DNA of 54,866 nt from assembly GCA_031406795.1 (NCBI GenBank), contig JANOHV010000053.1, positions 1 through 54,866 on the forward strand, read 5' to 3'. Every line of letters begins with the position of its first letter. Within the stretch, counting starts at the first letter, position 1. Below the pieces are notes generated by a model, which worked only from the letters and a program-made list of their open reading frames with translations, was not told the DNA's origin and did not search any database. The position numbers and the translations under genes are program-made. The DNA is from Candidatus Rokuibacteriota bacterium. Its GTDB lineage: Bacteria; JAUVQV01; DATDCY01. Positions 9,729 through 50,953 of the stretch are shown here, in pieces.

Positions 9729-9782
9729 TCGCAGATTATAGACGCTCCATGATGAAAGCGACAAGAATGATGGTTGCGATTC

Positions 9783-10030: not shown

Positions 10031-10059
10031 CTTAGCAGATGGGCTGTTTTAGTAGCCTG

Positions 10060-29571: not shown

Positions 29572-30795
29572 TCAGCGGCCGTCACGAACCCGGCGCAGCA
29601 GGGGCGCGAGGCCGAGGAGCGCGGCGACGGCGCCGAGGGCGGTGACCAGTCCGCCGGCGCCGGCGATGCCGCCCAGCAGGCGCACCCCGGCCGCGCCTGC
29701 GAACGGGCCGAGCAGGATCCCGAGGCCGATGACCCACTCGTGCAGGCCGCCGCCTTCCCCGGCGCCGCCCTCGCGGTCGAGCGAGGCGTGCAGGGAGGCC
29801 GAATAGGCGAGGCCGGACAGTGCGCCGAGCACGACCAGGGCGCCGAAGGCCGCCAGGGGTGATCGGATGAACATGACCGCGGCGAACGCGGCCGGCGGCA
29901 CGAGGAGCGCCGCGGCGAGCCAGCCGCGGGAGTACTCCCAGCCCTCCCAGCGCCAGAAGAGGATGAAGGAAGCGCTGCGGGCGAGGAGGTAGGCGCTCAC
30001 GAGCCAGATTGCGAGACGCAGTTCGAGGCCGAGGCGCTCGCCGAGAGTGGGGGCGAGGGCGGCGAAGGCCCCGAAGAGGAAGTAGGAGAGGCCGTTGGCG
30101 ATCCAGGCCGACTTCAAAAACAATGCCCGGGCCCCCGCTTCGCGCCGCCCCTCCGCCGTCAATGGGTGCGGGACAGGCATCCCCGTCTTCGGTGCAAGAC
30201 CGAGGTGTGCCGGCCTCGTTGTCCGAAGAGCTTCGCTCCTGACCGCGAACCAGAGGATCTGGATGATGTGGGCCGCCAGCGGCAACCAGAAGACGGCGTC
30301 CGGGTCGTTAGCGAAGATCGCGCCCCCCGCCAGAAAACCCGTCGAACCGACGAACGACCAGGTGACGTTGTAGAGTCCGGCGCGGCGCGCGAGGGGGACG
30401 CGGCCGGGGGCGCGGGCGATCGCCGCCTCGAGGGCCGGCCAGGTGAGCGCCGTCGATGTGCTGTAGAGGGCGACGGCGGCAAACAGGGGCAAGTCCTGGG
30501 TCGATTGCCAGCCGAACACCAGCGCCAGAGACATGCCGGCTAGACCGATCGGGATGGAGCGGTTAGGCCCGACCCGGTCCGCGAAGCGCCCGCCCGCGCG
30601 CGCGGCGAGCACATAAGCCCCTCCCTGCGTCGCGGCGAGCAGCAGGTTTGCCGTGTCGCTGAAGCCGTGCTGGAGGCGGGCATGGAAGTAGATGCCGAGG
30701 AAGAAGATCGTGGTGCCGAACGCGTTGAGTCCCTCGAGGAAGTAGTAATCGGCCAGGCGAAACTGCCCGGTATCCTGCCGCACGGCGGGTTTCAA
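29572..30795 (-). CDS. MFS transporter
   Basis: About 12 TM segments, GRFADRVG motif A; start overlaps the hypE stop. Confidence 0.85.
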   Translation of the reverse strand: MKPAVRQDTGQFRLADYYFLEGLNAFGTTIFFLGIYFHARLQHGFSDTANLLLAATQGGAYVLAARAGGRFADRVGPNRSIPIGLAGMSLALVFGWQSTQDLPLFAAVALYSTSTALTWPALEAAIARAPGRVPLARRAGLYNVTWSFVGSTGFLAGGAIFANDPDAVFWLPLAAHIIQILWFAVRSEALRTTRPAHLGLAPKTGMPVPHPLTAEGRREAGARALFLKSAWIANGLSYFLFGAFAALAPTLGERLGLELRLAIWLVSAYLLARSASFILFWRWEGWEYSRGWLAAALLVPPAAFAAVMFIRSPLAAFGALVVLGALSGLAYSASLHASLDREGGAGEGGGLHEWVIGLGILLGPFAGAAGVRLLGGIAGAGGLVTALGAVAALLGLAPLLRRVRDGR

Positions 30796-31793
30796 CAGAT
30801 TCTGGGGAGCTGTTCCCCGGCGAGCATGTCGAGGATGCGGGTGCCCGCCGCCGCCGTCTGAAGCAGGACCTTCGCGTCCTCCTCGGCGCCGATTTCGCCG
30901 ACGATTGCCGCGTGCCGGCCCCGCGGGTGAGCGCGCATCGCCGCGAGCAGCCGGCCGGCGTCCGCCGGTGCGGCGACCGCGATCAGCAGTCCTTCATTGG
31001 CCACGGAGAGCGGGTCGAGGCCGAGCAGGTCGCACGCGCCGCGCACCCCCGGCAGCACCGGGATGTCGGCCTCGCGCACCAGAATCCGCCGCCCGGATTC
31101 CAGCGCGAACTCCTTGAGCGTCGTCGCGAGTCCGCCGCGGGTCGGGTCGCGCATCGCGCGAATCGCCGCCCCCGTTGCGAACATCGCCTCCGTGAGGCCG
31201 TTGAGCGCCGCCGTGTCGCTGACAAGCGGCGGTTCGAAGGAGAGACCGTTGCGCTCGGCCATCACCGCCATCCCGTGGCTCCCGGTGTGGCCGCTGACCA
31301 GCACGATGTCTCCGGCCCGCAGCGAGCGGGGAGAGAGTTCGCGCCCCTCGGGAACGAGGCCGATGCCGGCCGTGGTGATGAAGCAGCCGTCGCACTTGCC
31401 GCGCTCGACCACCTTGGTGTCCCCGGCGACGATCGGGACCCCGGCCGCGCGAGCCGCGGCGGCCATGGAGTCGACGATGCGCCGCAGGTCGGCGAGCGGG
31501 AGCCCCTCCTCGAGAATGAACCCGGCGCTCAGGGCCAGGGGCCGCGCCCCGCTCACCGCCAGGTCGTTGACGGTGCCGTTGACGGCCAGTTCGCCGATGG
31601 TGCCGCCGGGGAAGAAGATCGGCGAGACTACGTAGCCGTCGGTCGTGAAGGCGAGTCGCCCCGGGCCGGCGGCCGCGAGAATCGCCGAGTCGCCGAAACC
31701 GCTGACGGAGAAGGCCGGCGCCATGACCTCGTGAATGAGACGGTGCATCATGCGCCCGCCGCTGCCGTGACCGAGGAGGATCCGCTCTTCCAT
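30792..31793 (-). CDS. hypE: Hydrogenase maturation carbamoyl dehydratase HypE
   Basis: LGHGSGG, GTVNDLA, GDTKVV, RDPTRGG, C-terminal LPRIC. Confidence 0.96.
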   Translation of the reverse strand: MEERILLGHGSGGRMMHRLIHEVMAPAFSVSGFGDSAILAAAGPGRLAFTTDGYVVSPIFFPGGTIGELAVNGTVNDLAVSGARPLALSAGFILEEGLPLADLRRIVDSMAAAARAAGVPIVAGDTKVVERGKCDGCFITTAGIGLVPEGRELSPRSLRAGDIVLVSGHTGSHGMAVMAERNGLSFEPPLVSDTAALNGLTEAMFATGAAIRAMRDPTRGGLATTLKEFALESGRRILVREADIPVLPGVRGACDLLGLDPLSVANEGLLIAVAAPADAGRLLAAMRAHPRGRHAAIVGEIGAEEDAKVLLQTAAAGTRILDMLAGEQLPRIC

Positions 31794-31798
31794 CGGCC

Positions 31799-32875
31799 TC
31801 AGCCGTTCGCCTCGTACTTGTAGTAGGCGGCGCAGCTGCCTTCGCTGCTGACCATGCAGGCGCCGATCGGCCGCTCGGGGGTGCAGGCCTTCCCGAAGAG
31901 TTTGCAGTCGGGCGGGGACTTGATGCCCTTGAGGACGGCGCCGCACTGGCAGGCCGCGGGGTCGGGGACCGCTGGCCGCTCGAGGCCGAACTTGCGCACG
32001 GCGTCGCGGTGCGCGAAAGCCGCTCGCAACTCCAGTCCGCTGCCCGGGATCGTGCCGATGCCCCGCCAGTGCGCGTCCGCCGGCTCGAAGAACCGGCCGA
32101 GGATTTCGCGCGCCCGCGGGTTCCCCTCCGGTCGCACGACCCTCGTGTACTGGATTTCGACGCGCGGCCGGCCGGCGGCCAGTTGCGCGAGCAGCATCGC
32201 GATGCCCGAGAGGATGTCCCCGGCGTCGAAGCCCGTGACGACGGCGGCCTTGCCGAACTGCGCGGGCAGAAAGTCGTAGGGCGCCACTCCGGTCACCGTG
32301 CAGACGTGTCCCGGCAGGATGAAGCCGTCCACCTGCACCTCGCCCGAGCCGAGCAGGGCCGAAAGCGCGGGCGGGACGGTCTTGTGGACCGAGAAGATCG
32401 AGAAGTTGGCGACGCCGCGGCGTTCGGCCTCCCAGAGCGTGCCCGCGACCAGCGGCGAAGTCGTCTCGAACCCGGTGGCGAAGAAGACGACTTCGCGGGA
32501 CGGATCCTTCGCTGCGAGCGCCAGCGCGTCCAGCGGCGAGTAGACGATGCGGACATCGGCGCCGTCGGCGCGGGCTTCGGCGAGCGATTCGCTCCTTCCC
32601 GGCACGCGCATCATGTCGCCGAAGGTCGCCAGCGTTGCGTTGCCGCCTCTGGCGAGCAGTATCGCGGCCTCGACGTCGGCCGCCGCCGTGACGCAGACCG
32701 GGCACCCCGGGCCGGAGAGCAGCCGGATGGTGTCGGGCAGCAGCGCCCGGATGCCGTGGCGGAAGATCGCGACGGTATGAGTGCCGCAGACCTCCATCAG
32801 CCGCACGGGGCGGTCGATCGCCCGGGCGAGCGCGGCGATGCCGTGCGAGAGCTCCTCGATGGTCGGATTGGGCAT
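31799..32875 (-). CDS. hypD: Hydrogenase maturation factor HypD
   Basis: MEVCGTHT, GPGCPVCV, GFETT, PGHV, CMVSSEGSCAAYY. Confidence 0.97.
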   Translation of the reverse strand: MPNPTIEELSHGIAALARAIDRPVRLMEVCGTHTVAIFRHGIRALLPDTIRLLSGPGCPVCVTAAADVEAAILLARGGNATLATFGDMMRVPGRSESLAEARADGADVRIVYSPLDALALAAKDPSREVVFFATGFETTSPLVAGTLWEAERRGVANFSIFSVHKTVPPALSALLGSGEVQVDGFILPGHVCTVTGVAPYDFLPAQFGKAAVVTGFDAGDILSGIAMLLAQLAAGRPRVEIQYTRVVRPEGNPRAREILGRFFEPADAHWRGIGTIPGSGLELRAAFAHRDAVRKFGLERPAVPDPAACQCGAVLKGIKSPPDCKLFGKACTPERPIGACMVSSEGSCAAYYKYEANG

Positions 32876-34658: not shown

Positions 34659-35878
34659 TCCCCGAACTGCAGGGCTTTCTGTTTCCGAACGACATCCACA
34701 TCCTGTGGTCGCTGATGATCGTGCTCTACCCCTACGTCACCGGCCTGGTCGCGGGGGCCTTCATCGTCTCCTCGCTCTACCACGTCTTCGGTCGCAAGGA
34801 GCTCTGGCCGATCGGCCGCTTTTCGCTCGTGGCTTCCTTCGCCTTCATGGCCGTGGCGACGCTGCCGCTGGTCAACCACCTTGGCCACCCCGAGCGGGCC
34901 TTCAACATCATGGTCACCCCGAACTCCTCCTCGGCGATGGCCGGCTTCGGCCTGGTCTACAACTGGTACCTGATGATCCTGATCCTCGAGATCTGGTTCG
35001 TCTTCCGCAAGGACATCGTCATGACCGCGCGACAGAGCCGGGGCTTCAAGCGGTTCGTCTTCTCGATGCTCGCGCTGCGGACCTACGACATCTCCGAGGC
35101 GGCGCTCAAGACCGACCACAAGATCGTCACGGTGCTGACCGCGATCGGCATCCCCTCGGCCTGCTTCCTGCACGGCTATGTCGGCTTCCTCTTCGGCGCG
35201 CTCAAGGCCAACCCCTGGTGGTCGACGCCGCTGATGCCGGTCATCTTCCTGTTCTCCGCGGTGGTCTCGGGGATCGCGGCGATGATCCTGATGTACATGG
35301 CGGCGATGGCGCTCAAGGGCCTGCCGATCCTGCGCAAGACCGTGGCCACGATGGCCAGCTGGCTCTGGCTTTTCATGATCCTCACCGTGACGCTCGAACT
35401 GCTGGAGATCATCACGCTGGCCTACGAGAGCTCGGAGGAGTGGGTGATCATCCGCCAGCTGCTCACGACGCGGCTCTCGTTCAGCTTCATCTCGATGCAG
35501 CTGATCATCGGCTCGCTGATCCCGTTCATCCTGCTGCTGATCGTCGTGCTGCTGGGCAGCCAGATGAAGGCGCGCGTGCAGAACATTCTCGCCGGGACGG
35601 CATCGTGCATCCTGCTGGTCCAGGTCTTCTCGATGCGCTGGAACGTCGTCATCGGCGGCCAGCTCTTTTCGAAGAGCCTGCGCGGGCTGCGCAGCATGTA
35701 CGAGCCGGGCTTCTTCGAGAAGGAGGGGATCCTGCCGGCGCTGCTGATCATCTCGCTGCCGTTCGTGATCCTCGTGGTCTTCGAGAAGTTCTTGCCGATG
35801 TTCCGGTCGGTCGAGGAAGCCTACGCCGCGGGCGAGATCGCCATGGAGGATGGCGAACCGGCGGAGGCGGACCACTAG
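34655..35878 (+). CDS. NrfD/PsrC-family quinol-interacting membrane subunit
   Basis: W..MIV.YPY.TGLVAGA, HLG.P.R, multiple TMs; ATGA overlap. Confidence 0.9.
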   Translation: MIPELQGFLFPNDIHILWSLMIVLYPYVTGLVAGAFIVSSLYHVFGRKELWPIGRFSLVASFAFMAVATLPLVNHLGHPERAFNIMVTPNSSSAMAGFGLVYNWYLMILILEIWFVFRKDIVMTARQSRGFKRFVFSMLALRTYDISEAALKTDHKIVTVLTAIGIPSACFLHGYVGFLFGALKANPWWSTPLMPVIFLFSAVVSGIAAMILMYMAAMALKGLPILRKTVATMASWLWLFMILTVTLELLEIITLAYESSEEWVIIRQLLTTRLSFSFISMQLIIGSLIPFILLLIVVLLGSQMKARVQNILAGTASCILLVQVFSMRWNVVIGGQLFSKSLRGLRSMYEPGFFEKEGILPALLIISLPFVILVVFEKFLPMFRSVEEAYAAGEIAMEDGEPAEADH

Positions 35879-35920
35879 ATTCGTGCGGTTCTTCAGCAGC
35901 CTGGGCGGGGAGGGCGCGCG

Positions 35921-37750: not shown

Positions 37751-38841
37751 GGCGGGGCGCAGCGGCCGCGGCGCTTCTGTCGCTGCTCGGCGTCATCGCG
37801 GCGTTGCCGCCGGGGGGCGCTGCAGCCTTCAAGCACGTCGAGCTCGGCCAGCCGCTCCCCGCGTTCGCGTCGAAGGATCTCGATGGCCGCAGCTGGGAGT
37901 CCGGCGCGCTGATCGGCGACGTCACGGTGGTGGTGATCTGGGCGACCTGGAGCCCGCGCTCCCGCGAGATCCTCGAGGACCTCGAGAAGCTCCGCTCCGA
38001 ACTGGCTCCGCAGCGGCTGCAGCTGGTTGCCGTCAATGCCGAGCACCTCGCCATCTCCGCGGCCGACCGGGAGGCGATCCGCGCCATCGTGGCGCAGACG
38101 CACTCGACGGCGAAGGTGCTCCTCGACGAGGGCCTCGTCGCCTTCAACGCGCTCGGGACGATGGCCGTCCCCTCGAGCCTGGTGCTCGATGCGGCCGGCC
38201 GCGTCGTCTTCACGCTGGCGGGCTATCCGACGACGATGCGTTCGGATCTCGCCGACGCGGTCCGCAAGGCGCTCGGGCTGCCCACCTCCGAGGAGTTGCG
38301 CCCGGTTCGCGAGTACGTTCCGAAGAATCACGGGTTGATGTACTACAATTTCGGCCGCCTGCTCCTCGAGAAGGGGCAGGAGGAAAAGGCGGTCGCACAG
38401 TTCCTGATGGCCGTCGAGCGCGACCCCGCCTTCAAGAAGCCGCACCGGGAACTCGGGCTGCATCACCTGCGCAACGGCCGGGTCGAGGAGGCGCGGGCGG
38501 CGTTCATGAAGGTGCGCGAGATCGACCCCCACGATGCCGAGGCAACGTACCAGGCCGCGGCCGCCAGCCTTCGCGCGGACCGCCTCGCGGAAGCGGCGGC
38601 TCTCTTCGGCGAGCTTGCGGCCGAGTTCCCCGACCACGGGGGGTACGCGCTCGCGCTCGCGCTGACGCAGAAGTTCCTCGGCCGGGAGGAGGAATACCGC
38701 GCGAGCGAGGCCAGTGCCGCGGGGCTGCGCCCCGCCGAGCCGCGGCTGCTCTACGACCTCGGGGCCGTCGCGGAGCGCCGCGGCGCACTGCCAATCGCCG
38801 CCGATCTCTACCGGCGGGCTCTGGAGGCGTCGCTGCGCTGA
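37747..38841 (+). CDS. Exported TlpA/redoxin-fold + TPR protein lacking CXXC
   Basis: G..LP.F...DLDG, WATWSPRS, cis-Pro VP motif, C-terminal TPRs; GTGA overlap. Confidence 0.8.
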   Translation: MRRGAAAAALLSLLGVIAALPPGGAAAFKHVELGQPLPAFASKDLDGRSWESGALIGDVTVVVIWATWSPRSREILEDLEKLRSELAPQRLQLVAVNAEHLAISAADREAIRAIVAQTHSTAKVLLDEGLVAFNALGTMAVPSSLVLDAAGRVVFTLAGYPTTMRSDLADAVRKALGLPTSEELRPVREYVPKNHGLMYYNFGRLLLEKGQEEKAVAQFLMAVERDPAFKKPHRELGLHHLRNGRVEEARAAFMKVREIDPHDAEATYQAAAASLRADRLAEAAALFGELAAEFPDHGGYALALALTQKFLGREEEYRASEASAAGLRPAEPRLLYDLGAVAERRGALPIAADLYRRALEASLR

Positions 38842-38899
38842 GGCGATCCGGCGGCTCGCTGCGATGCACTCGCCGCCGGGGGTGGCCGTGTTCCGTCGG

Positions 38900-39057
38900 T
38901 AATCCTTCAGTGAAGCGCGGAAACTCTTTCCGATCGTGGTGAGCCGTGAGCTTGACGAACGGTCGAACCATGAACGGAAATTTGCCCTATCCACAAGCGC
39001 CCTTCGACAGACTCAGGGCGAACGGTACTGATTTTGCTACCCCTCACTGAAGGGTTA
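38900..39057 (-). mobile_element. MITE family A, copy 2
   Basis: Reverse complement of 22233-22390 with a few substitutions. Confidence 0.85.
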
Positions 39058-39078
39058 CTTCCGTCGGCCTCGCGATAC

Positions 39079-39107
39079 TTGACAGGGATTCCCGGTGAAA
39101 GTATGCT
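39079..39107 (+). promoter_or_regulatory. Sigma70 promoter for ImcH-like cytochrome
   Basis: TTGACA-17 nt-TATGCT. Confidence 0.65.
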
Positions 39108-39167
39108 TCCGGATTCGTACGAGTCGGACACGGGATTGAGCATCGCGAGTGGGGCAGGGGGGACGGC

Positions 39168-40631
39168 ATGGACGCGGAGCAATTGAAATCGTTGGATATG
39201 CGGGGGCGTTTCTTCAACTACGCCAACAACACGATCACCATCGCGGGCGCGGTGCTCGCGGTTCTCTCGGCGGTGCTGCTGATCACCGTGGTCTCCATCA
39301 ACATGATGGGCGGCCACCTCGGCCCGTACTCGGGGATCATGGCCTTCATGATCCTGCCCGGCGTTTTCGTCGGCGGCCTGATCACCATGCCCGTCGGCAT
39401 CTGGCTGCGCCGCCGCAAGCTGCTCGCCGCGCACGTCAGCGACGAGGAGATGAACCGTTTCCCGAAGCTGGATTTCAACGACGCGCACCTGCGCAAGGGG
39501 GTGCTGATCTTCCTCGGCCTGACCTTCGCGAACGCGGTCATTTTCGCGACGGTCACCTACCTCGGCGTCGAGTTCATGGAGTCGCCCCGCTTCTGCGGCA
39601 CCGTCTGCCACACCGTAATGTCACCCGAATACACGGCGTACCAGGGCTCGCCGCACTCGCGCGTCATGTGCGTGCAGTGCCACATCGGCCCGGGCGCCTC
39701 CTGGTTCGTGAAGGCCAAGGTCGACGGGCTGCGCCAGGTCATATCGACGACATTGAACACCTTCAGCCGCCCGATCCATTCCCCGATCGCCCACCTGCGT
39801 CCGGCGCGGGAGACCTGCGAGCAGTGCCACTGGCCCTCCAAACACATCGGCGACAAACTCCACGCGTTCGTGCGCTACGCCGACGACGAGCCGAACACCG
39901 CAAGCTACAACGCGATGCTCATCAAGACCGGCGGCGGCGATCTCGACAGCGGGCGCCACGGCGGCATCCACTGGTGGCACATCTACTCCGACAACAAGAT
40001 CCGGTACATCGAGAGCGACCCGCGGCGGCTCGGGATCTCCTGGGTGGAGTTGACGACATCGAGCGGCGAGGTGCGCACGTACACGCGCAAGGGCGACAAG
40101 GTTCTCACCGCCGCCGAGCTGGCGCAGGCCCGGACGATGGACTGCATCGACTGCCACAACCGGCCGACGCACCTCTTCCAGTTCCCGAACCGGGCCGTCG
40201 ACGAGGCCATCGAGAGCCACCCGGACCTCGCGAAGCTCCCCTTCTTCAAGCGCGAGGCGATGAAGGCCGTCCAGGCCAAGTACCCGACCCACGATGGCGG
40301 CATGCAGGAAGTCAAGAAGTCGGTCCAGTCCTTCTACGCTGCCGGCTACCCGGCCGCGCCGAAAGATCTCGTCGAGCGGGGCGCCCAGGCGGCCGCTGAC
40401 ATTTACGGACGCATCGTCTTCCCGGAGATGAACACGAACTGGGAGACCCATCCGAACCACATCGGGCATCCCGACCCGAGCACCGACGAGGGCTTCGCCG
40501 GCTGCTGGCGCTGCCACGACGACAAGCTGACTACCGCCGACGGGAAGTACACGATTCCGCAGGACTGCGATAACTGTCACACGTTCCTGGTCGAGGACAG
40601 CCCGACCCCGCCGGAGTTCGCAAGCAAGTAG
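39168..40631 (+). CDS. NapC/NirT-domain inner-membrane multiheme cytochrome c (ImcH-like)
   Basis: 3 TMs; CGTVCH, CVQCH, CEQCH, CIDCH, CWRCH, CDNCH; RPARETC. Confidence 0.88.
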   Translation: MDAEQLKSLDMRGRFFNYANNTITIAGAVLAVLSAVLLITVVSINMMGGHLGPYSGIMAFMILPGVFVGGLITMPVGIWLRRRKLLAAHVSDEEMNRFPKLDFNDAHLRKGVLIFLGLTFANAVIFATVTYLGVEFMESPRFCGTVCHTVMSPEYTAYQGSPHSRVMCVQCHIGPGASWFVKAKVDGLRQVISTTLNTFSRPIHSPIAHLRPARETCEQCHWPSKHIGDKLHAFVRYADDEPNTASYNAMLIKTGGGDLDSGRHGGIHWWHIYSDNKIRYIESDPRRLGISWVELTTSSGEVRTYTRKGDKVLTAAELAQARTMDCIDCHNRPTHLFQFPNRAVDEAIESHPDLAKLPFFKREAMKAVQAKYPTHDGGMQEVKKSVQSFYAAGYPAAPKDLVERGAQAAADIYGRIVFPEMNTNWETHPNHIGHPDPSTDEGFAGCWRCHDDKLTTADGKYTIPQDCDNCHTFLVEDSPTPPEFASK

Positions 40632-41062: not shown

Positions 41063-43378
41063 CTAACGGAGACGCTCGCGCAGCAGGAAGGCCTGGCCGA
41101 GGCTGATGCCGCCGTCGTTGGCGGGGACACGGGAGTTGGCGTGCACGCGCAGCCCCAACGTCTGGACGCCGCGTGTGATCGCCCCGAGCAGCAGACGGTT
41201 CTGGAACACGCCGCCGCTGAGCGCCACGTCACACAGGCCGGTCGCGCGGTGCAGGCGATCGACCTGCTCGACGACGGCGGCGGCGACCGTCGCGTGGAAT
41301 CGCCCGGCGATGAGCCGGACGTCGGTGCCACGCTCCAGGTCATCGAGGAGCGCGAGAAACGCCGGCGAGAAGTCGATTCGCGGCAGGCCGTCATCAGTCA
41401 ACGTGAATTCGTACGGCTCCCCGATCTGTCCGCCCGCCGCGGCCTCGAACCGCATCGCCGCCTCGCCCTCGAAGCTGTTGTGGTCGCAGAGGCCGGCGAG
41501 GGCGGCAGCGGCCTCGAACAGCCGGCCCGCGCCGGAGCTGAGCGGCGAGAGGGACCTGTTGGAGAGGACCCGGAGCACATTCTCGGCGTCGGACTCGCCG
41601 ACCCGGGCGCGAAGCATCCGCACCGCGGCCCGATCGGGGATGACCCCCCCCCCAGCCGCCGCGAGATAGCTCAGCGCCATGCGCCAGGGGTGCCGGATCG
41701 CCCCCTCGCCCCCGGGCAGCGGGACGGGCTTGAACGAGGCGGCGCGCTCGAAGGAGCGCCCGTCCGCGATCAGGAACTCTCCGCCCCAGACCGTGCCGTC
41801 GGGCCCGTAGCCGGAACCATCGAGGGCGACGCCGATGACGGGGCCGGCGAGCCCCGTTTCCGCGAGCACCGAGGCGACGTGGGCCCAGTGGTGTTGCACA
41901 CCCCAGAGCTCGACGCCCGGCTGCTCGAGCGCCCAGCGGGTCGAGAAGTAGCCCGGATGCAGGTCGTGCGCGATCGCGACGAGGGAGACGCGGTAGACGG
42001 ACTTCAGGTTCTCCAGCGTCTCCAGAAAGAATTGAAGCGTCTCGTGGTTTTCCAGGTCGCCGATGTGCTGGCTGACGACGGCCGCGCCCGGGGTGGTCAG
42101 CGTGAAGGTGTTCTTGACCTCGGCGCCGCACCCGAGCACGGGCGGACCGGACCCGGGCAGCGGGATCGCCGCGGGAACGTAGCCGCGCGCCCGGCGGATG
42201 AACTGCGTCCGCCCGTCGCGGCGGCGCACGACGGAGTCGTCAACGCGCATGAAGATCCCGCGGTCGTGGTCGAGAAAACCTTCGGCGAACGGAGCCAGCA
42301 CGCGGTGGGCCGCCTCGGCGTCCTTGACGATCGGCTCGTCGGCGACGTTGCCGCTGGTCATCACCAGCGCTGAGAAGTTCGAGCCGCCCCGGGAGCGGCG
42401 GCGGCCAGAGGCTCGGAGTCTGTCCCGGTCGGCAGGCTGCGCCGGGAGGCGCGTGTGGAAGAGCAGCCAGTGCAGCGGCGTGTTCGGGAGCATGAACCCG
42501 AGCTCGGCTGCGGCGGGCGCAACCGCATCGGGGATGCCGATCCCGAACCTGCGCGTGAGAAGGACAATCGGCCGTTCGGGCGACACGAGCAGCGCCTCCT
42601 CCTCCGCGGAGAGCTCGGCGAAGGTGCGCACGGCGTCGAGGTCCGGCGCCATCAGCGCGAACGCCTTGTTGCTGCGGCGCTTGCGCTCGCGCAGCTTCTC
42701 CACCGCAGCCGCGTCGAGGGCATCGCAGGCCAGCTGGTAGCCGCCCAGGCCCTTGAGGGCGAGGATGCCCCCGCCGCGCAACAACTCGACCGCAACGCGG
42801 ACGGCATCGGCGCCCCGAAGGGTCCCGGCGTTTCCGCCGTCGCTGAACGTGACCGCAGGCCCGCAGTCCGCGCAGGCGTTCGGCTGCGCGTGGAAGCGCC
42901 GGTCGCGCGGGTCGTGGTACTCGCGCGCGCACGCCGGGCAGAGCGCGAACGGCGCCATCGTCGTGTTCGGGCGGTCGTACGGCACCCCCCGGGTGATCGA
43001 GTAGCGCGGCCCGCAATTGGTGCAGTTCGTGAAAGGGTAGCCGAAGCGCCGGTCCGCCGGGTCGGCCAACTCGCGCAGGCAATCGCCGCAGGTGGCGATG
43101 TCGGGCGAGAGCTCGGTCGACGCGCCCGCCTCGCGGCTCGGCAGGATCACGAAGCCGGCGGCGCCTTGCTCGGGGACCTCACGTTTTTCGATGCTGGTGA
43201 TCCGGGCGAGGGGAGGGGGAGCCGCCCGCAGCGCCTCTTCGAACTCCCCCGCGCGATCCCCTTCGACTTCGATCTCGACGCCGGCCGACGAGTTGCGCAC
43301 GAAGCCGGTGACGCCCAGTTCGCGGGCCAGTCGCCAGACGGTCGGCCGGAACCCGACGCCCTGCACGACCCCGGTCAC
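41063..43378 (-). CDS. hypF: Carbamoyltransferase HypF
   Basis: GVVQGVGFRP, CxxC zinc fingers, RRFHAQPNAC, KGLGG, HDLHP, QHH.AH, PANDGGISLGQ; start uncertain. Confidence 0.96.
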   Translation of the reverse strand: MTGVVQGVGFRPTVWRLARELGVTGFVRNSSAGVEIEVEGDRAGEFEEALRAAPPPLARITSIEKREVPEQGAAGFVILPSREAGASTELSPDIATCGDCLRELADPADRRFGYPFTNCTNCGPRYSITRGVPYDRPNTTMAPFALCPACAREYHDPRDRRFHAQPNACADCGPAVTFSDGGNAGTLRGADAVRVAVELLRGGGILALKGLGGYQLACDALDAAAVEKLRERKRRSNKAFALMAPDLDAVRTFAELSAEEEALLVSPERPIVLLTRRFGIGIPDAVAPAAAELGFMLPNTPLHWLLFHTRLPAQPADRDRLRASGRRRSRGGSNFSALVMTSGNVADEPIVKDAEAAHRVLAPFAEGFLDHDRGIFMRVDDSVVRRRDGRTQFIRRARGYVPAAIPLPGSGPPVLGCGAEVKNTFTLTTPGAAVVSQHIGDLENHETLQFFLETLENLKSVYRVSLVAIAHDLHPGYFSTRWALEQPGVELWGVQHHWAHVASVLAETGLAGPVIGVALDGSGYGPDGTVWGGEFLIADGRSFERAASFKPVPLPGGEGAIRHPWRMALSYLAAAGGGVIPDRAAVRMLRARVGESDAENVLRVLSNRSLSPLSSGAGRLFEAAAALAGLCDHNSFEGEAAMRFEAAAGGQIGEPYEFTLTDDGLPRIDFSPAFLALLDDLERGTDVRLIAGRFHATVAAAVVEQVDRLHRATGLCDVALSGGVFQNRLLLGAITRGVQTLGLRVHANSRVPANDGGISLGQAFLLRERLR

Positions 43379-43379
43379 C

Positions 43380-44039
43380 TCAATGCGCCAACGAATGTTG
43401 CAGTTTCCCTTCCAACCACGCGTACCAGGTCTCCAGCCCCTGTCCGCTGCGCGCCGACACCTCGAACACCCGCAGTGCAGGATTCAGGCCGAGCGCATCG
43501 GCGCTGATCTTCTCGAGGCTCACCTCAAGGTGCGCCGCCAGATCGACCTTGTTCACGAGCAGCGCCTCGCATTCGCGGAACATCCGCGGGTACTTCAGCG
43601 GCTTGTCGTCGCCCTCCGTGATCGAAAGCAGCATCACCTTGGCGTCCTCGCCGAGGTCGAACTCCGCCGGGCAGACGAGATTGCCGACGTTTTCGATGAC
43701 CAGCAGGTCGATCGCCTCCAGCGGCAACTCCGGCAGCACCGACTGCACCATGTTCGCGTCGAGGTGGCACCCGCCCGCGGTGTTGATCTGGATGACCGGC
43801 ACGCCGAGCGCCGCGATCACCTCGGCGTCGTGCGTCCCTTGAATGTCCCCCTCGATGACGCCGAAGCGGATCTTCGCGCCCAGGTCGCGGATCGTGCGCG
43901 CCAGCAGCGTCGTCTTGCCGGCGCCGGGCGAGGACATCAGGTTGATGGTGGTGATCCCGCGTTCGCGCAGCATCCGCCGGTTCTCCTCGGCGATGCGGGT
44001 GTTGGCCTTGAGGATGTTCGTGACGACCTTGACCTTCAT
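43380..44039 (-). CDS. hypB: Hydrogenase nickel incorporation GTPase HypB
   Basis: SSPGAGKTT, CHLDA, ENVGNLVCPA, NKVD. Confidence 0.97.
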   Translation of the reverse strand: MKVKVVTNILKANTRIAEENRRMLRERGITTINLMSSPGAGKTTLLARTIRDLGAKIRFGVIEGDIQGTHDAEVIAALGVPVIQINTAGGCHLDANMVQSVLPELPLEAIDLLVIENVGNLVCPAEFDLGEDAKVMLLSITEGDDKPLKYPRMFRECEALLVNKVDLAAHLEVSLEKISADALGLNPALRVFEVSARSGQGLETWYAWLEGKLQHSLAH

Positions 44040-44177
44040 GGTATTCCTCCGAAACATTTGCTCTATCCGCGAGAAGGTTTTGCCTTCCGCGATAGACGGC
44101 CCTGTTGTCTAGTTGACAATAATTCCTCGGTGTCATCAGGCAGAAGCCTCCATAGTCTTGCGGGCAAAAAGCCCGCG

Positions 44178-44525
44178 CTATGGCTCCCCCTCCAGATCCA
44201 GCACGTGGAGTTCGTCCCCGGCGGTGACCCGGAAGGACGTCCCGCCGCAGAGCGGGCAGGCGAGAACGTACGGCTCCGGGGTGGTGAAATCCCGATCGCA
44301 GACGGCACAGTGGCCGCCGACGGGGACCTCGTCGATTTCGAGCACCGCCGCTGCGGCGGGAGTGTCGACCTTGGAGCAGTCGAATGCGAAGCGCAGCGAG
44401 TCGGGCTGCACGCCGCTGGCGCGGCCGACGCGCAGGCGCACCACGGTGACGCTGGCGAGGCCCGATTCGGCGGCGGCGGTGCGCACGATGTCGAGAACGG
44501 AAAGTGCGATCGAAAGCTCGTGCAC
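44178..44525 (-). CDS. hypA: Hydrogenase nickel metallochaperone HypA
   Basis: (M)HELSIA, CAVC...CPLC, G.EL. Confidence 0.95.
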   Translation of the reverse strand: MHELSIALSVLDIVRTAAAESGLASVTVVRLRVGRASGVQPDSLRFAFDCSKVDTPAAAAVLEIDEVPVGGHCAVCDRDFTTPEPYVLACPLCGGTSFRVTAGDELHVLDLEGEP

Positions 44526-44548: not shown

Positions 44549-44872
44549 CTAGCCGGTCGGCTTCGCGGGGTCGTCGCCCCAGGCGATGTCGCCCTTCGCG
44601 AACAGTTCGCGGAATTCCTCGGGGACTTCGTCGGCGCTCTCGCCGGAAGCTTCGGCGGCGGCGACGAGGCTGCGGAAGAACTTCAACGACTCCTCCGCGG
44701 TGTCGCGGTCGACCACCTGCATCGCGAAGCCGGCGTGCACGAGCACGAAGTCGCCGGGGGCGACCTCCTCCGGCATCAGCATCAGATTGGCCTCGCGGCG
44801 CGCGCCGCAGACGTCGACGACGGCGGTGAAACCGTCGGTGGAGACGATCCGCGAGGGGATGGCGAGGCACAT
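44549..44872 (-). CDS. hypC: Hydrogenase assembly chaperone HypC
   Basis: MCLAIP, GDFVLVHAGFA; acidic C-terminal extension. Confidence 0.95.
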   Translation of the reverse strand: MCLAIPSRIVSTDGFTAVVDVCGARREANLMLMPEEVAPGDFVLVHAGFAMQVVDRDTAEESLKFFRSLVAAAEASGESADEVPEEFRELFAKGDIAWGDDPAKPTG

Positions 44873-45270: not shown

Positions 45271-45789
45271 TTACGGACCGGGATTCCATTCGAGCTGGCG
45301 AGGAGCCGGATCCGGGCGCTGCTCGACGCGGTGGCCGAGACGGCGCAGTTCGTCGGCGATCGAATCGACGAGCTTGCCGAGGCTCGCCTCGGCGGTCGCC
45401 GTCAGCGCCAGGCCCATGGTCATCGTCTCCGGTTCCATGCCGAAAAGCACCATCTCGCCGGGGAGCGTGTCCGAAATCAAGGCCGTGGCGAGCACGTCGG
45501 AGAGGCCGATCTGGTGCGGGCTGATGCGGATGTGGAACATCCGGGGCACATCCTCCCCCTCGACGCGGAATACGGTGCCGGGGGGGTGACCGGCGGCCAC
45601 GGCGTCGACGATGAGGATGCGATCCTTGCCGTCGAGATACCTCAGCAACTCGATGCCGGCGGTCCCGCCGTCGAGGAATTCGACATCGTCGTCGAAGGTG
45701 AAACGCCGCTGCAGCTCCCCGAGGGCGTGAATACCGACCCCCTCGTCCTGAAGCAGGACATTTCCTATTCCCAACACGAGCGTCTTCAT
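45271..45789 (-). CDS. hybD: Hydrogenase maturation endopeptidase (HybD/HyaD type)
   Basis: VLGIGNVLLQDEGVG, DGGT, VDAV, SPHQIGL. Confidence 0.93.
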   Translation of the reverse strand: MKTLVLGIGNVLLQDEGVGIHALGELQRRFTFDDDVEFLDGGTAGIELLRYLDGKDRILIVDAVAAGHPPGTVFRVEGEDVPRMFHIRISPHQIGLSDVLATALISDTLPGEMVLFGMEPETMTMGLALTATAEASLGKLVDSIADELRRLGHRVEQRPDPAPRQLEWNPGP

Positions 45790-45923: not shown

Positions 45924-47642
45924 CTACAGGACCTTGACCTTGATCGTCTTGTCCTTGTCCTTGTCCGTCAGGTGGATCGCGCAGGCCAGGCAGGGGTCGA
46001 AGGAGTGGATTGTCCGGATGATCTCCAGGGGTTTTTCCGTGTCGGCCACCGAAATCCCGATCAGCGCCTCCTCGTACGGGCCGCGCACGTCCTGGGAGTT
46101 GCGCGGGCAGGCGTTCCAGGTCGAGGGCACGACCGCCTGGTAGTTCTTGATCTTGCCGTCCTGGATCACGATCCAGTGCGAGAGAATCCCGCGCGGCGCC
46201 TCGTGGAACCCGAAGCCGCGCTGCTCGCCCTTCGGGAACGTCGGCGGGTTGAACGTGGTGGTGTCGCCCTTGACGATGTTCGCCATCAGGGCCGCAAATT
46301 GTTCCTGCAGAGTGTCGTTCAAGACCGCGCAGCGGATCGAGCGCGCGGCCACGCGGCCGAGCGTCGAGTGCAGCGCGCCGAGACCGACTTGGGTCTTCGC
46401 GACGTCACTCGCCATCTGGAGCACCGCCGTCGCGTACTTCTTGGTGGGCTCGTGCCCGGCGGCGAACATGCACAGCACGTTCGCGAGCGGGCCGACCTGC
46501 GCGGGCTTGCCCTGAAAGGTCGGGGACTTGACCCAGCTGTACTTGCTCCCCTCGGTGACGGTCTCCTTCCAGTCGGTGTACTTCGGGTCGGTCGACTCGT
46601 CCCAGGGGTGTTTGCTCCAGTCGCCGTCGTACCAGGAGTGCTTGATGCTCTCCTGGACGTTCTCCTTGAAGAACTGGGACCCGAACTCCTTGATCGGCGC
46701 GTACTTGGAAATGTCCCCGCCGGGAATGTAGCCGCCGGGCAGCATGAACTGCGTCCCCTTGGTGTCCATCGGCATGTCGGGCGCGCAGAGGTAGTTCATG
46801 TGGCTCTTGCCGACGGTGGCGATGTCGCCGGCATAGAGCGCGCCGACGGCCGCCGTGTCGGGGACCAGCACCTGCTTGACGAAATCGTTGGCCTCGTCGA
46901 GCAGCGTCTTGACGTAGTAGAGGCGCTCCATGTTCAGGACGTCGGGGGCGTTCGGGTTGATCGGGTTGGTCACGCCGCCGACGGTGATCGTCTGCACGTG
47001 CGGAGTCTTGCTGCCGAGGATGCTGACCACCATATTGATCCGGCGCTGGTAGTGCAGCGCCTGCAGGTAGTGGTGCGCGGCCAGCAGGTTGACGTCCGGC
47101 GGCAGCTTCATCGCCGGGTGGCCCCAGTAGCCGTTGCCGTAGATGCCCAGCTGCCCCGAGCCGACAAAGGCCTTGAGCCGGTCCTGCGAGGCCTTGATCT
47201 CGGCGACGGTGTTGTGCGCCCACGGCGAGAGCTTCGCGCCGATCGCTGCGGCGCCCTTCGGGTCGCCCTTGGTGATCGCCGAGACCAGGTCGACGTAGTC
47301 CAGCGCGGTCAGGTGGTAGAAGTGCACGATGTGGTCGTGCACCGCGTGCGCGCCCATCATCAGGTTGCGGATGTACTGCGCATTGAGCGGGATCTCGAGC
47401 CCAAGGGCGTTTTCGACCGAACGCACTGAAGCCAGTGCGTGGACGGTCGTTCAGACGCCGCAGAAGCGCTGCGTGAACGCCCAGGCGTCGCGCGGGTCCC
47501 TCCCCTGCAGGATGGTCTCGACGCCGCGCCACATCTGGCCCGACGACCAGGCGTTGGTGACCTTTCCGCCCTCCACCTCGCACTCGATGCGCAGGTGGCC
47601 CTCAATCCGGGTGACCGGGTCGATGACGACTCTCTTGGCCAT
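45924..47642 (-). CDS. hybC: [NiFe] hydrogenase large subunit (Hyb/Hyd-2 type), 572 aa, with in-frame TGA (putative Sec64)
   Basis: [10 protein letters not shown]1 QRFCGV-TGA-TTVH; L2 [11 protein letters not shown] plus cleavable tail; the two listed ORFs (47451-47642 and 45924-47426) are in the same frame. Confidence 0.9.
47414..47449 (-). promoter_or_regulatory. Putative bacterial SECIS element
   Basis: mRNA UGA-A-CGACCG-UCC-ACGCACUG-GCUU-CAGUGCGU-U-CGGUCG: 6-bp + 8-bp stems, loop starting with G, 18 nt after UGA. Confidence 0.75.
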
Positions 47643-47667
47643 AGTGTGTCTCTCCTTCTGCTCTCGG

Positions 47668-48804
47668 TTAGGTGTGCTCGGGTGCGGCGAGCACCGGCAG
47701 TTTCTTCACAAAGATCAGGTAGGCCATGATTTCGACCGCGACGATCGCGAGTGTGACCATGATCTCGGGGACCGAGGGGAAGTAGCGCCACCCCGGGGCC
47801 GGCTGGAAGCCGACGATGTACATGTTGAACTTCAGGACCGCGCAGCCGAGCAACAGCACGAAGGAGGCCCGGCAGAGGCTCTTCGCGCTCGTGCGCCTGG
47901 CCGCCGGCATCAGCATCGCCAGCGCGGCAACGAAGAGCAGGTTCTCGATCCAGAACATCAGGCCGGCCGTCCCGGCGAACGCGCTCCCGAGCGCGCCGCG
48001 CAGCAGCAGGTCGGCCCAGCGCACCACCAGGTAGACGATCAGCAGCCCGGGGATCACACCCGCGACCTTCGACAGAAGCGGGGTCTCGAACGGGCGCTTA
48101 AAGGCCACCGCCGAGAGGTAGGACTCGAAGATCACGATCCCGAAACCCATCAGGATCGCCGTGGTCACGTTGTAGAACGGCAGCAGGCCGGACTGCCAGA
48201 GCGGCGAGAGCTTGTCCCCGCTGATCACCATCAGCGTCCCGAGCGAGGACTGGTGCATCGTCGGCAGCAGCACGCCGATCGCGACGAGGATGAACATGAT
48301 CTTGTTGTACCCCTTTGCCGCCCCCGGCCCGCCCCTGGCCTCGATGAAGGTCGGGAAGAACTCGAGAAAGAGGATGCCGACGTACGCCGCGATGCACAGC
48401 GCGACTTCGAGCAGCACCGAGTTGAAGTTCATCAGCGAGGGTTTGAAGATGTTGAACATGTTCCAGTAGCGGCCGATGTCGACGAAGATCGACGCCGCGG
48501 CGAGGGCGTAGCCGAAGAGGCTCGTCATCACCGCGGAGCGCACGAGGGGGTGATACTCCCCCTTGTTGAAAATGTAGACCAGCAGCGCCATCGCGTACCC
48601 GCCGCAGCCGATGGCGGTGCCGACGAGCACGTCGTAGGTGATCCAGATGCCCCAGGGATAGCCGTCGCTCATGTTCGAGACCGCCCCGAGGCCGTACATG
48701 AAGCGCTGGGTGAGGAACCAGGCCCCGATGCCGGCGACGACCAGCGCGATGGCGAACACCCTCGTGAACAGAGGCCCGCCGACGGGCGTGTGTACGTGGC
48801 TCAT
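47668..48804 (-). CDS. hybB: Hydrogenase-2 integral membrane subunit HybB
   Basis: [30 protein letters not shown]. Confidence 0.93.
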
Positions 48805-49802
48805 GGCTTGTCCTCCCCCTCGTGGCCCCGGCCGCTCCTGTAGGCGGCAAAGAGCAGCCCCGCCAGGAGCACGCCCGGCGCGATCATCCCCTTGTAGAGG
48901 GTGTGCTGGATGGTTTCGGACTTCGCGGTGAACGATCTCTCGGGCAGCTTCGGCAGCCCGAGCTTGTCGGGGGACACCCCCGAGAGCATGAGGTACTGCG
49001 TGCCGCCGACTTCGTTCACCCCGTAAATATGCTTCTGGTACCGCGCGACCTTGCTGGACACGGTCTTGAACGAGTCGACGCGTTGCTGGGGGTAGTCGTA
49101 GAAGTCGCCCGGCGTCTGGGCGAGGCGCCGCTCGGCTTCCGCCCGCAGATCGGTCACCTTCCCGTAGATCGAGGCCCCGACGGGGCAGAACTCGCAGCAG
49201 GCCGCGTATTTCCCCTCTTTGAGACGATGGTTGCAGAGCTGGCACTTGCGGATCTGGGGGTAGGCCTGGTCCCACTCGAACTTCGGGATGTTGAAGGGAC
49301 AAGCGACCTGGCAGTACCGGCAGCCGATACAGGCGTCCTTGTCGTAGGTAACGATCCCCGTCTTCTTGTCCTTCGTCATCGCCGAGACCGGGCAGGCCGA
49401 GACGCACGCCGGCTCTGCGCAGTGCATGCAGTGCCGTTTCACGAACGTGTAGCCGTCGATCTCGGCGTTCTTCGTATTACCCGTCCCGTTGCGGTAGGTC
49501 AGGATGATGTTCAGGGTCCGGGAGGTGAGATCCGTCGCCATGTCCCAGTTCCTGAGTCCGGGGTTGTATTCGAAGGGGGGCCTGGTCATGCCCTCGGTCC
49601 AGAGGGCGCCCCCCGGCACGCTGTTCTCCCTCTTGCAGGCCACCATGCAGACCTTACACCCGATGCAGAGCGTGGCGTCGAACAGGATTCCGACGGCATC
49701 GGGCGACGGCCCCTTCGCTTCCGACGCGCGGGAGACGCCCGCGTCGGTGGCGAGGAGCAGCCCGCTCGCCGCGGTCAGCTTGAGAAATTCCCGCCTCTTC
49801 AT
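48801..49802 (-). CDS. hybA: Hydrogenase-2 Fe-S subunit HybA
   Basis: MKRREFL Tat motif; CIGCKVC, CMHC, CIGCRYC, CQLC; QHTLYKG C-terminal anchor. Confidence 0.93.
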   Translation of the reverse strand: MKRREFLKLTAASGLLLATDAGVSRASEAKGPSPDAVGILFDATLCIGCKVCMVACKRENSVPGGALWTEGMTRPPFEYNPGLRNWDMATDLTSRTLNIILTYRNGTGNTKNAEIDGYTFVKRHCMHCAEPACVSACPVSAMTKDKKTGIVTYDKDACIGCRYCQVACPFNIPKFEWDQAYPQIRKCQLCNHRLKEGKYAACCEFCPVGASIYGKVTDLRAEAERRLAQTPGDFYDYPQQRVDSFKTVSSKVARYQKHIYGVNEVGGTQYLMLSGVSPDKLGLPKLPERSFTAKSETIQHTLYKGMIAPGVLLAGLLFAAYRSGRGHEGEDKP

Positions 49803-49813
49803 CGCGCGTCTCC

Positions 49814-50953
49814 TTACTTCCTGACTTCCTCGGCCTGGCCCACCTTCTTGGAGGTTGCGAGGCCGGCGCCGACCACGGCGCCCACCACGCCCGCAGCGAT
49901 TGCGGCCGCGGCGGTGGTCACCCCCTTGCCCCCCCCGCCGTCGACGCCGGGGAAGAGGGCGGGCGGCGTGACGTCCAGGTTGTCGAGGCGCGCCGGGGAG
50001 TGCAGCGCCTCGGTGAAGCCCACGTTCTGCTCGGAGCAGCCGAAACAGGGTGCTCCCATGCCGACCGGCCAGGCGCTGGCGCCGACATCGCCGAAACCGA
50101 GCGTCGAGCAGTTGTTGTAGGTCTCCGGCCCCTTGCAGCCGAGCTTGTAGAGGCACCAGCCCTGCTTGTGCCCGTCATCGCCGAATTGCTCCGCGAAATT
50201 ACCGGCGTCGAAGCTCGGCCGGCGCTCGCAGTTCTCGTGGATCAGGCGTCCGTAGGCGAACTTCGGGCGGCCCTTGCCGTCAAGCTCCGGCAGCTTGCCG
50301 AATGTCACGAAATAAAGCACCGCCGAGAGGAAGTTGTAGGGGCTCGGCGGACAGCCGGGGATGTTCATGACAGGGACCTTCACGCCCTTCGCCTGCAAAA
50401 CGGCACTGGCGCTGCTGGCTCCGGTCGGGTTCGGGGAGGCGCTGGGCATCCCGCCCCACGACGAGCAGGAGCCGATCGCGATGACTGCAGCGGCAGAAGA
50501 AGCCGCCTGCGCCAGGTGGTGGACTGCGGTCAGACCGCCGATCCTGCAGTAGATGCCGTCGTCCTTGGTCGGGAAGGATCCTTCCGCGACGCAGATGTAT
50601 TGCCCTTTGTACAAGGTGATCGCATTTTCGCGGGCTTCATTGGCCTGCTGGCCGCAGCCGGCCTGGAGGGTCTCGTGATACTCGAGCGATATCAACTCGA
50701 GGATCAGGTGCTCGAGGGTCGGGTGGGTCGCGCGCAGCAGGGACTCGGTACACCCGGTGCATTCCTGTCCGGAGATCCAGATGACCGGCAGGCGCTTGGC
50801 CGCCGTCGCCGCCTCGGCGATCTGCGCGCCGACGCTCGCATCGAGACCCATATAGACCGCTGCCGCGGTGCAGACTTTCATGAAGTCGCGGCGCGACAAA
50901 CCGCTTCCGAGCGTCCCCCCCGTGTCAACTTCCCGGCATGTCGTGCACTTCAT
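49814..50953 (-). CDS. hybO: [NiFe] hydrogenase small subunit (HybO type)
   Basis: SRRDFMK Tat motif; ECTGC, IGSC, PGCPP, HENC, CLYKLGCKGP, CFGC; C-terminal TM. Confidence 0.94.
   Translation of the reverse strand: MKCTTCREVDTGGTLGSGLSRRDFMKVCTAAAVYMGLDASVGAQIAEAATAAKRLPVIWISGQECTGCTESLLRATHPTLEHLILELISLEYHETLQAGCGQQANEARENAITLYKGQYICVAEGSFPTKDDGIYCRIGGLTAVHHLAQAASSAAAVIAIGSCSSWGGMPSASPNPTGASSASAVLQAKGVKVPVMNIPGCPPSPYNFLSAVLYFVTFGKLPELDGKGRPKFAYGRLIHENCERRPSFDAGNFAEQFGDDGHKQGWCLYKLGCKGPETYNNCSTLGFGDVGASAWPVGMGAPCFGCSEQNVGFTEALHSPARLDNLDVTPPALFPGVDGGGGKGVTTAAAAIAAGVVGAVVGAGLATSKKVGQAEEVRK

Follow-up and report, generated by a model that had tools for sequence, protein, structure and literature searches.

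The 54,866-nt contig JANOHV010000053.1 of a Candidatus Rokuibacteriota genome (GenBank assembly GCA_031406795.1), which we analyzed over its full length and refer to as the window, encodes on its minus strand a predicted [NiFe] uptake hydrogenase whose large-subunit gene contains an in-frame UGA. Translation of positions 45924 to 47642 on that strand gives a Hyb-type (hydrogenase-2-like) large subunit of 572 residues plus a stop; the only internal TGA is codon 64, within Q-R-F-C61-G-V-TGA64-T-T-V-H. The TGA is followed by 508 open codons, up to an intact C-terminal motif, DPCLAC, in which all metal-binding positions are cysteine (Cys), and a 15-residue extension. We propose that codon 64 is very probably recoded as selenocysteine (Sec) by SelB and tRNA-Sec, directed by a hairpin that lies just downstream of the UGA, so that a full-length 572-residue Hyb-type subunit would be made.

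The large subunit aligns from end to end with HybC of Escherichia coli (PDB 6EN9, chain L; residues 1 to 572 against 1 to 567, 719.8 bits, E = 2e-215), and U64 falls opposite C64 of HybC. Its best NCBIfam model is NF007778, hydrogenase 2 large subunit (810 bits over residues 1 to 572), and its best matches are Group 1 enzymes (Hyd-2, Hyd-1, and periplasmic hydrogenases), not those of Group 4; NuoD-like models reached only about 40 bits, over residues 14 to 108. The resemblance to E. coli hydrogenase-2 (HybOABC) extends to the gene set, the ligand motifs, and the C-terminal extension, but the large and small subunits both score under the equivalog cut-offs (810 against 969 bits and 493 against 659 bits), and the window enzyme is therefore a relative of that enzyme and not the same protein. 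The other difference is at residue 64, where E. coli HybC has Cys and the window gene has UGA. The four-Cys rule for such enzymes (RxCGxCxxxH plus DPCxxC) is broken at this one place, the second Cys of the N-terminal motif, which leaves three Cys (C61, C553, and C556) and one presumed Sec (U64) as metal ligands.

The genes hybO, hybA, hybB, hybC, and hybD are contiguous in that order on the minus strand, with hypC, hypA, hypB, and hypF near and hypD and hypE 13 kb further on. By gene content, the operon is of the membrane-linked HybOABC type (Hyd-2-like, Group 1c), predicted to encode a periplasmic uptake hydrogenase exported by the twin-arginine translocation (Tat) system. A preliminary description of the window, made from its letters alone, had given the coordinates of the large-subunit gene without its strand, the motif around the UGA with about 500 in-frame codons beyond it, the all-Cys C-terminal motif, the correspondence of the UGA to HybC C64, a Hyb-type identity, and an intact set of operon, protease, and hypA-F genes. 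Translation, alignment with 6EN9, and profile searches bear out all of these points: hybO, hybA, hybB, the protease gene, and hypA-F were all found, and all are open.

If the UGA terminated translation, the gene would either be a pseudogene or yield a 63-residue peptide and an internally started protein of 500 residues without the N-terminal Ni ligands; alternatively, the TGA could be an assembly error. Gene callers do annotate such loci in this way. Under translation table 11, the frame splits into ORFs (open reading frames) of 63 (47451..47642) and 500 (45924..47426) amino acids in the same frame, and 5 of the best 120 database homologues (from 8000 scored) are ORFs of about 500 residues that start right after the TGA, the way in which gene callers cut such genes. 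However, the 63 codons upstream of the UGA are in frame and conserved with HybC at the protein level, and a product without C61 and U64 would lose two of its four metal ligands. The UGA-bearing gene is also the sole Group 1 large-subunit gene found in a search of the genome, which yet retains hypA-F and the protease gene; a second, distant NiFe large subunit is encoded on another contig. Termination at codon 64 is also hard to reconcile with the retention of TGA at this one codon across many assemblies and phyla and with downstream synonymous sites that are frozen into a hairpin, both described below, and we find this explanation barely credible.

Among 41 genomes of relatives searched, 11 had a match at E ≤ 1e-50. 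TGA occupied the identical codon in all six TGA-bearing copies, which came from five assemblies and shared 76 to 100% protein identity. The carriers were genome G000, three genomes of the same genus (one with two copies), and one genome of another family in the same order, with the relatives at 76 to 93% identity. More distant full-length homologues (46 to 60% identity) had no TGA, with TGC or TGT at this codon in the four examined. All 115 full-length homologues among the best 120 database matches have Cys opposite U64, and one Cys-type protein is 79% identical to the large subunit of the window. The second Sec-type copy in one of the same-genus genomes (G001, contig C3, 86439-88155; L033/L034) is split between frames, with residues 1 to 388 and 386 to 572 matching separately. 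Either the gene has become a pseudogene by frameshift or the assembly is wrong here.

Contigs of one genome per species were scanned with a degenerate pattern for C-G-V-TGA-T-T-V-H-A, which matched at least 120 stretches; 80 of these became loci for analysis. The taxa given in the record titles of these loci are Anaerolineae and other Chloroflexota, Nitrospirota, Thermodesulfovibrionales, Desulfobacterales, Desulfobulbales, Desulfobacca, Candidatus Rokubacteria, Spirochaetes, and Nitrospinaceae. Together with the six lineage copies, this made 86 sequences, of which 65 spanned the full length, with one TGA each and the DPCx[A/G]C motif intact; the remaining 21 ended at contig edges or had frame breaks, several of them in long-read assemblies.

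We also compared positions 47000 to 47700 with contigs from four sequencing runs (of 21), one of DNA and three of RNA libraries, from four studies, at a likeness of at least 88%. The TGA codon is bridged by the contigs X15 record 7 (47361-47700), X16 record 10 (47104-47603), and X17 record 24 (47289-47671), and none of the 40 differences listed, of 65, lies at 47451-47453. There were synonymous differences at 47454 and 47457, in the two codons just upstream of the TGA. These are assembled contigs of relatives, and they therefore show the persistence of the TGA, not transcription or a level of expression. A single 97-base joint in X4 (one contig, depth 2.4) and, at 47452 and 47455, loose ends resemble other hydrogenase genes present in a soil metagenome. 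Taken over all these sources, the TGA is not the product of chance or sequencing error.

Downstream of the UGA lies a hairpin that resembles a selenocysteine insertion sequence (SECIS), with a 6-bp lower stem, an internal loop, and an 8-bp upper stem (ACGCACUG/CAGUGCGU). Counted from the U of the UGA, its apical loop, GCUU, lies at +21 to +24. The minimum free energy is -23.2 kcal/mol (z = -2.69), and 1 of 200 shuffled sequences was equally stable. Across the six lineage copies the hairpin is invariant but for one G-U change, which keeps the pairing, while nearby synonymous sites differ.

To describe such hairpins across the wider set, we used a criterion of an uninterrupted stem of at least 6 bp and a loop of 3 to 8 nt that begins 16 to 37 nt from the UGA, a range taken from general background, with a G within the first two loop bases, a rule that follows Takano et al. 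(2026). As controls we took 81 Cys-type sequences fetched by the same pattern altered only at the Sec codon. Hairpins of this description occur in the window gene and in all 73 unique Sec-type sequences. Every Sec-type sequence has its hairpin at a similar distance from the UGA, and the hairpins are of five kinds that match clades of the protein tree. One of the Cys-type controls, a metagenome contig with TGC (L160), carries a hairpin nearly identical to that of the window, with a 9-bp stem and a loop at +21; either the gene has lately reverted from Sec or the fold was there beforehand.

Variation at third codon positions was measured as entropy in eight-codon segments (about 110 to 130) over 150 codons, within clades defined by the protein tree. 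In clade A, to which the window belongs (18 unique sequences), the minimum lies at codons +4 to +11 (0.08 against a median of 1.13); in clade B (30 sequences) and clade C (8 sequences) it lies at codons +7 to +14 (0.36 against 1.19 and 0.0 against 0.6, respectively). The minimum thus falls on the hairpin in three of three clades. Clades B and E together comprise 42 sequences, 32 of them distinct. Their 6-bp stem is paired in every one of 192 cells, and four of the six pairs have changed on both sides. The covariation score was reached by none of 500 shuffles, and controls slid along the alignment pair in 17 to 62% of cells. In one compensatory pair, a codon change between Ser and Cys is matched by a synonymous change at Ala. 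Other clades form a hairpin at the same place from different sequences, with compensatory changes, and the frozen synonymous sites and compensatory changes together show that the RNA structure after the UGA is under selection.

The genome, 99.9% complete by marker genes and in 278 contigs, also encodes machinery for Sec. A selA gene (541 bits) runs into the end of contig C93, and contig C88 opens, from base 4, with the C-terminal two-thirds of selB. The selB gene is fragmentary because the assembly breaks there, and a selA-selB operon has probably been broken by the assembly. The selD gene (351 bits; C234, 8400-9320) has an in-frame TGA of its own. A tRNA-Sec with anticodon TCA scored 69.2 bits. 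One in-frame TGA each is also present in a gene for the alpha subunit of formate dehydrogenase (FdhA; C272, 21644-24802; 1377.6 bits) and in a gene for a second molybdopterin enzyme (C42, 51654-52394). Given the Sec genes and these two TGA-bearing genes, the organism decodes Sec elsewhere in its genome. A selA gene above the cut-off was found in all 10 Sec-type genomes tested, including one from each of the five clades.

The tRNA complement bears on a second explanation, in which the UGA is read as Cys, either by a selC-like tRNA-ReC or by near-cognate decoding, to give an ordinary all-Cys enzyme of the Hyd-2 type. In its favor, the ancestral residue is Cys, and every Sec clade has Cys forms nested in it. 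A tRNA-ReC can decode UGA as Cys given a SECIS, which limits all calls made from sequence alone (Takano et al. 2026). In this genome, however, ARAGORN found only one tRNA with a TCA anticodon among 45 tRNAs, and called it tRNA-SeC(tca); it is of the Sec type, at 99 nt, with a long variable arm and a G discriminator before CCA. A G discriminator marks Sec rather than ReC identity. The single tRNA-Cys(GCA) is of ordinary length (75 nt), and the presence of selA, selD, and other selenoprotein genes also argues against Cys readthrough, which we regard as improbable.

Sec insertion at codon 64 is the explanation that we favor. The codon, its conservation, the constraint on the RNA, the Sec machinery, and the homology are observed; from these we infer insertion of selenium, the bridging geometry, and any catalytic consequence. 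In the mechanism that we envisage, SelB with Sec-tRNA-Sec would bind the hairpin and insert Sec at codon 64, and the Hyp proteins would assemble the NiFe(CN)2CO center on C61, U64, C553, and C556. The HybD protease would then trim the C-terminal extension, and the HybO-HybC dimer would be exported by Tat and dock on HybA and HybB. By homology, and by the assignment in the literature of the second Cys of the motif, residue 64 would bridge Ni and Fe, so that Se would take the place of S at the second Cys of RxCGxC.

Several points weigh against Sec insertion or temper the evidence for it. The support for it lies at the level of the gene and its RNA. The hairpin criterion also picks out 31 of the 81 Cys-type controls and is therefore weakly specific; SECIS-like folds in Cys-type relatives have been reported as well, in agreement with these controls (Takano et al. 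2026). Folding energy was tried as a discriminator and rejected, since the 48 nt after the codon average -14.5 kcal/mol in Sec-type and -15.6 kcal/mol in Cys-type sequences, with no separation. No Rfam family, SECIS families included, matches the hairpin; three chance matches of 14 to 16 bits lie far under the gathering scores. The selB gene is known only as a C-terminal fragment that scores below the cut-off of its model (130.5 against 242.25 bits), and selA was also found in a Cys-type genome (G040), which makes it uninformative as to the type. Because members of one clade share ancestry, counts of them are not independent. The preliminary description had asked for the TGA to be confirmed in raw reads; the comparison with run contigs agrees with TGA, but it consists of assembled contigs, and those from RNA libraries are no proof of transcription. 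As for its other proposals on sequence, Sec machinery was found (with selB in part), TGA-bearing homologues have a hairpin, and the gene was placed within Group 1, in clade A of a tree where Sec and Cys forms are mixed.

The features of the locus are collected in Table 1, together with two loci from other genomes that are described below. The start of the small subunit at 50953 was inferred from a ribosome-binding site.

Table 1. Coordinates of the hydrogenase genes and associated features. Positions refer to the window, except for the last two rows, which refer to the named context loci.
Feature	Coordinates	Strand	Evidence or remarks
Hyb-type (Hyd-2-like) [NiFe] hydrogenase large subunit	45924..47642	-	572 residues plus stop, U at 64
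In-frame TGA, codon 64 of large subunit	47453..47451	-	Reverse-strand translation
SECIS-like hairpin	47414..47449	-	Starts 4 nt past UGA
Small subunit, HybO-like, twin-arginine signal	49814..50953	-	TIGR00391 hydA, 450.3 bits (cut-off 179.5); NF007779, 493 (cut-off 659); TAT signal, 19.4 vs 16.7
HybA-like 4Fe-4S ferredoxin-type subunit	48801..49802	-	NF008134, 416.5 bits (cut-off 263)
HybB-like integral membrane subunit	47668..48804	-	NF008133, 470.4 bits (cut-off 450)
HyaD/HybD-family maturation endopeptidase	45271..45789	-	TIGR00072, 145.7 bits (cut-off 47.45)
HypC/HybG chaperone	44549..44872	-	TIGR00074, 81.7 bits (cut-off 48)
HypA nickel metallochaperone	44178..44525	-	PF01155, 94.5 bits
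HypB	43380..44057	-	TIGR00073, 272.2 bits (cut-off 121.2)
HypF carbamoyltransferase	41063..43378	-	TIGR00143, 728.8 bits (cut-off 466.1)
HypD	31799..32875	-	TIGR00075, 457.3 bits (cut-off 192.8)
HypE, start approximate	30792..31811	-	TIGR02124, 412.6 bits (cut-off 251.6)
UXXU large subunit, locus L315	6975-8693	-	Operon of small subunit, large subunit, b-type cytochrome
UXXU large subunit, locus L316	5991-7700	+	Operon of small subunit, large subunit, b-type cytochrome

The stretch between hypD/hypE and hypF (33867-40631) encodes a TtrB/DsrO-like 4Fe-4S protein (33867-34658, plus strand), a DUF2339 membrane protein, a redoxin-TPR protein (37330-38841, plus strand), and a NapC/NirT-type multihaem cytochrome (39168-40631, plus strand). 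Upstream of the hydrogenase operon, on the opposite strand, is an ORF with methylenetetrahydrofolate reductase domains (PF02219 and a C-terminal PF12225; 51855-53474, plus strand).

The window gene conforms to what has been called the CXXU type, with UGA at the second Cys of the N-terminal motif and an all-Cys C-terminal motif. In a Nitrospirota order we found many Group 1 hydrogenase genes in which the first Cys, too, is replaced by UGA (UXXU). We sampled 201 genomes of the order that holds one Nitrospirota Sec-type genome and obtained 127 matches in 124 genomes at E ≤ 1e-150. By hand count, 75 of these matches carry two in-frame TGAs, 25 carry one, 21 carry none, and 6 have TAA or TAG, so that 100 of the 127 carry one or two TGAs. 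All 25 two-TGA genes that were fetched read R-x-U-G-V-U-T-T-V-H and have an all-Cys C-terminal motif; the three one-TGA genes fetched were CXXU, and the four without TGA were CXXC. Twenty-three of the fetched UXXU genes (L283-L287 and L297-L314, from genomes G049-G229) read R-I-U-G-V-U-T-T-V-H and are about 50% identical to the window protein. In these genes one hairpin is present, after the second UGA. Two of the genes, viewed in their genomic context (L315 and L316), belong to operons with genes for a small subunit and a b-type cytochrome.

The Nitrospirota UXXU genes nest in the tree within a CXXU clade of the Chloroflexota type. Two further UXXU genes (L291 and L292, from genomes G154 and G197) fall within the window's own clade, at 70 to 72% identity and with a hairpin of the window type. 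UGA has therefore replaced the first Cys codon more than once. Because the C-G-V-TGA pattern demanded Cys at the first position, UXXU genes were missed by it. We found no report of UXXU in Group 1 in the literature searched, where the known reports concern Group 4 only. In genome G092, the UXXU operon (L316) is followed at 9243-12299 (plus strand) by genes for a DmsE-family decaheme cytochrome (258.7 bits) and an MtrB/PioB-family outer-membrane protein (220.9 bits, cut-off 240), neighbors that hint at a link of H2 oxidation to extracellular electron transfer.

In a protein tree of 219 sequences, for which Sec forms were chosen by the pattern and Cys forms were the nearest matches to the window protein, Group 1 genes of the Sec type fall into at least five groups, interspersed with Cys-type genes, and Cys forms branch from within the Sec groups. 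The named loci adjoining the lineage of the window carry the label Candidatus Rokuibacteriota or "uncultured bacterium." With a Cys root, the minimum number of switches between Sec and Cys is 13, a count that describes this sample only, since the sampling is biased. The distinct hairpin of each clade fits several independent gains of Sec. Conceivably, Sec was instead gained once, long ago, and hairpin turnover and many reversions came after.

One UGA-encoded Sec among the four Ni ligands is a trait that the window enzyme shares with canonical [NiFeSe] hydrogenases (Group 1a; Desulfovibrio vulgaris Hildenborough and Desulfomicrobium baculatum; PDB 5JSH and 1CC1). In those enzymes, however, Sec heads the C-terminal motif (DPUxxC) as a terminal Ni ligand, where the window gene has DPCLAC. 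The canonical operon encodes soluble HysAB, in contrast to the membrane-linked HybOABC. The [NiFeSe] chains in the PDB match the large subunit of the window at residues 178 to 569 only (about 280 to 289 bits), and the HysA model NF045518 scores 364.2 bits against a cut-off of 780. The predicted enzyme is on these grounds separate from the canonical ones. The preliminary description had called it an independently evolved [NiFeSe] hydrogenase; the separation from the canonical enzymes stands, but "independently" needs care, given at least five Group 1 clades in which Sec and Cys forms are mixed.

That description had also treated natural examples of Sec at this position as unknown, which is not supported. 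Takano et al. (2026) list 47 Sec variants of Group 4, each with its Sec within the N-terminal motif (27 of the CXXU, 4 of the UXXC, and 16 of the UXXU type), term UXXC and UXXU previously unrecognized, and describe the Sec of CXXU as predicted to bridge Ni and Fe. They credit Baltazar et al. (2011) with two Group 1 sequences and one Group 3 sequence of the N-terminal CXXU type. Citing papers describe that earlier work differently, as N-terminal CXXU (Takano et al. 2026) or as concerning a "bridging Cys C579" (Evans et al. 2021). A CxxU FrhA has been reported as well (Zhang and Gladyshev 2007). The published CXXU-type sequences resemble the window gene in the Sec site, in a SECIS with G as one of the apical loop's first two bases, and in coming mostly from metagenome-assembled genomes; the Group 4 cases of Takano et al. 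(2026) belong to energy-converting complexes, whereas the window gene encodes a Hyb-type uptake enzyme. Since CXXU had already been noted from sequences, the window gene adds a member to a known kind. The literature searched, in which Baltazar et al. (2011) is represented through citing papers and which covers main texts rather than supplements, yielded neither a survey nor a bench study of natural CXXU enzymes in Group 1, and the scale and diversity of the kind in Group 1 seem not to be in print.

The closest experimental counterpart is an engineered E. coli Hyd-1 variant, C79U, a Group 1 enzyme with Sec as the corresponding ligand (Evans et al. 2021, PMC8020662). It is active, with 13% of the native rate of H2 oxidation, the highest of four Sec variants, and its response to O2 is like that of the native enzyme. 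C79U differs from the window gene in being artificial, with UAG-directed insertion driven by EF-Tu in an O2-tolerant Group 1d enzyme, whereas the window gene has a natural UGA and a SECIS-like hairpin. By analogy, it shows that Sec at such a site can work.

The near-native behavior of C79U toward O2 also lends something to a third explanation, in which Sec is inserted but serves mainly as a selenium-dependent translational gate on hydrogenase synthesis and not to alter catalysis at Ni-Fe. The Cys and Sec forms interchange often, with at least 13 switches in the sampled tree, which suggests that both forms are functional. On the other hand, the Sec form persists over whole clades, as in the Nitrospirota order with 100 of its 127 matches carrying TGA, and this persistence suggests that selection favors it for its effect at the active site. 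Any codon would do for a gate, yet the UGA always lies at a Ni ligand. We strongly doubt that gating is the main role.

The natural CXXU variant is far more widespread than the literature consulted indicates. Because gene callers split these genes at UGA, hydrogenase surveys that start from called proteins are likely to count too few of them, or to misclassify them, in Chloroflexota, Nitrospirota, Desulfobacterota, and uncultured groups related to these. We would give an even chance to the broader proposal that N-terminal Sec in Group 1 uptake hydrogenases (CXXU and UXXU) is a large, mostly misannotated class of several origins, with clade-specific SECIS elements, that prevails in some anaerobic lineages.

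How selenium affects [NiFe] catalysis and oxygen tolerance is under active study, so far only through natural enzymes with Sec as a terminal Ni ligand and, for the other three positions, through engineering. A 2026 selenoproteome review lists only UxxC-type [NiFeSe] large subunits and states that they are exclusive to sulfate reducers and methanogens. If the broader proposal holds, that statement would be contradicted, and Se would have been selected repeatedly as a ligand that bridges Ni and Fe, sometimes with Se as a terminal ligand too, a coordination chemistry that is uncharacterized in any native enzyme. A natural Hyb-type enzyme with a bridging Se would permit direct comparison with close Cys-type relatives, which share up to 79% identity with it.

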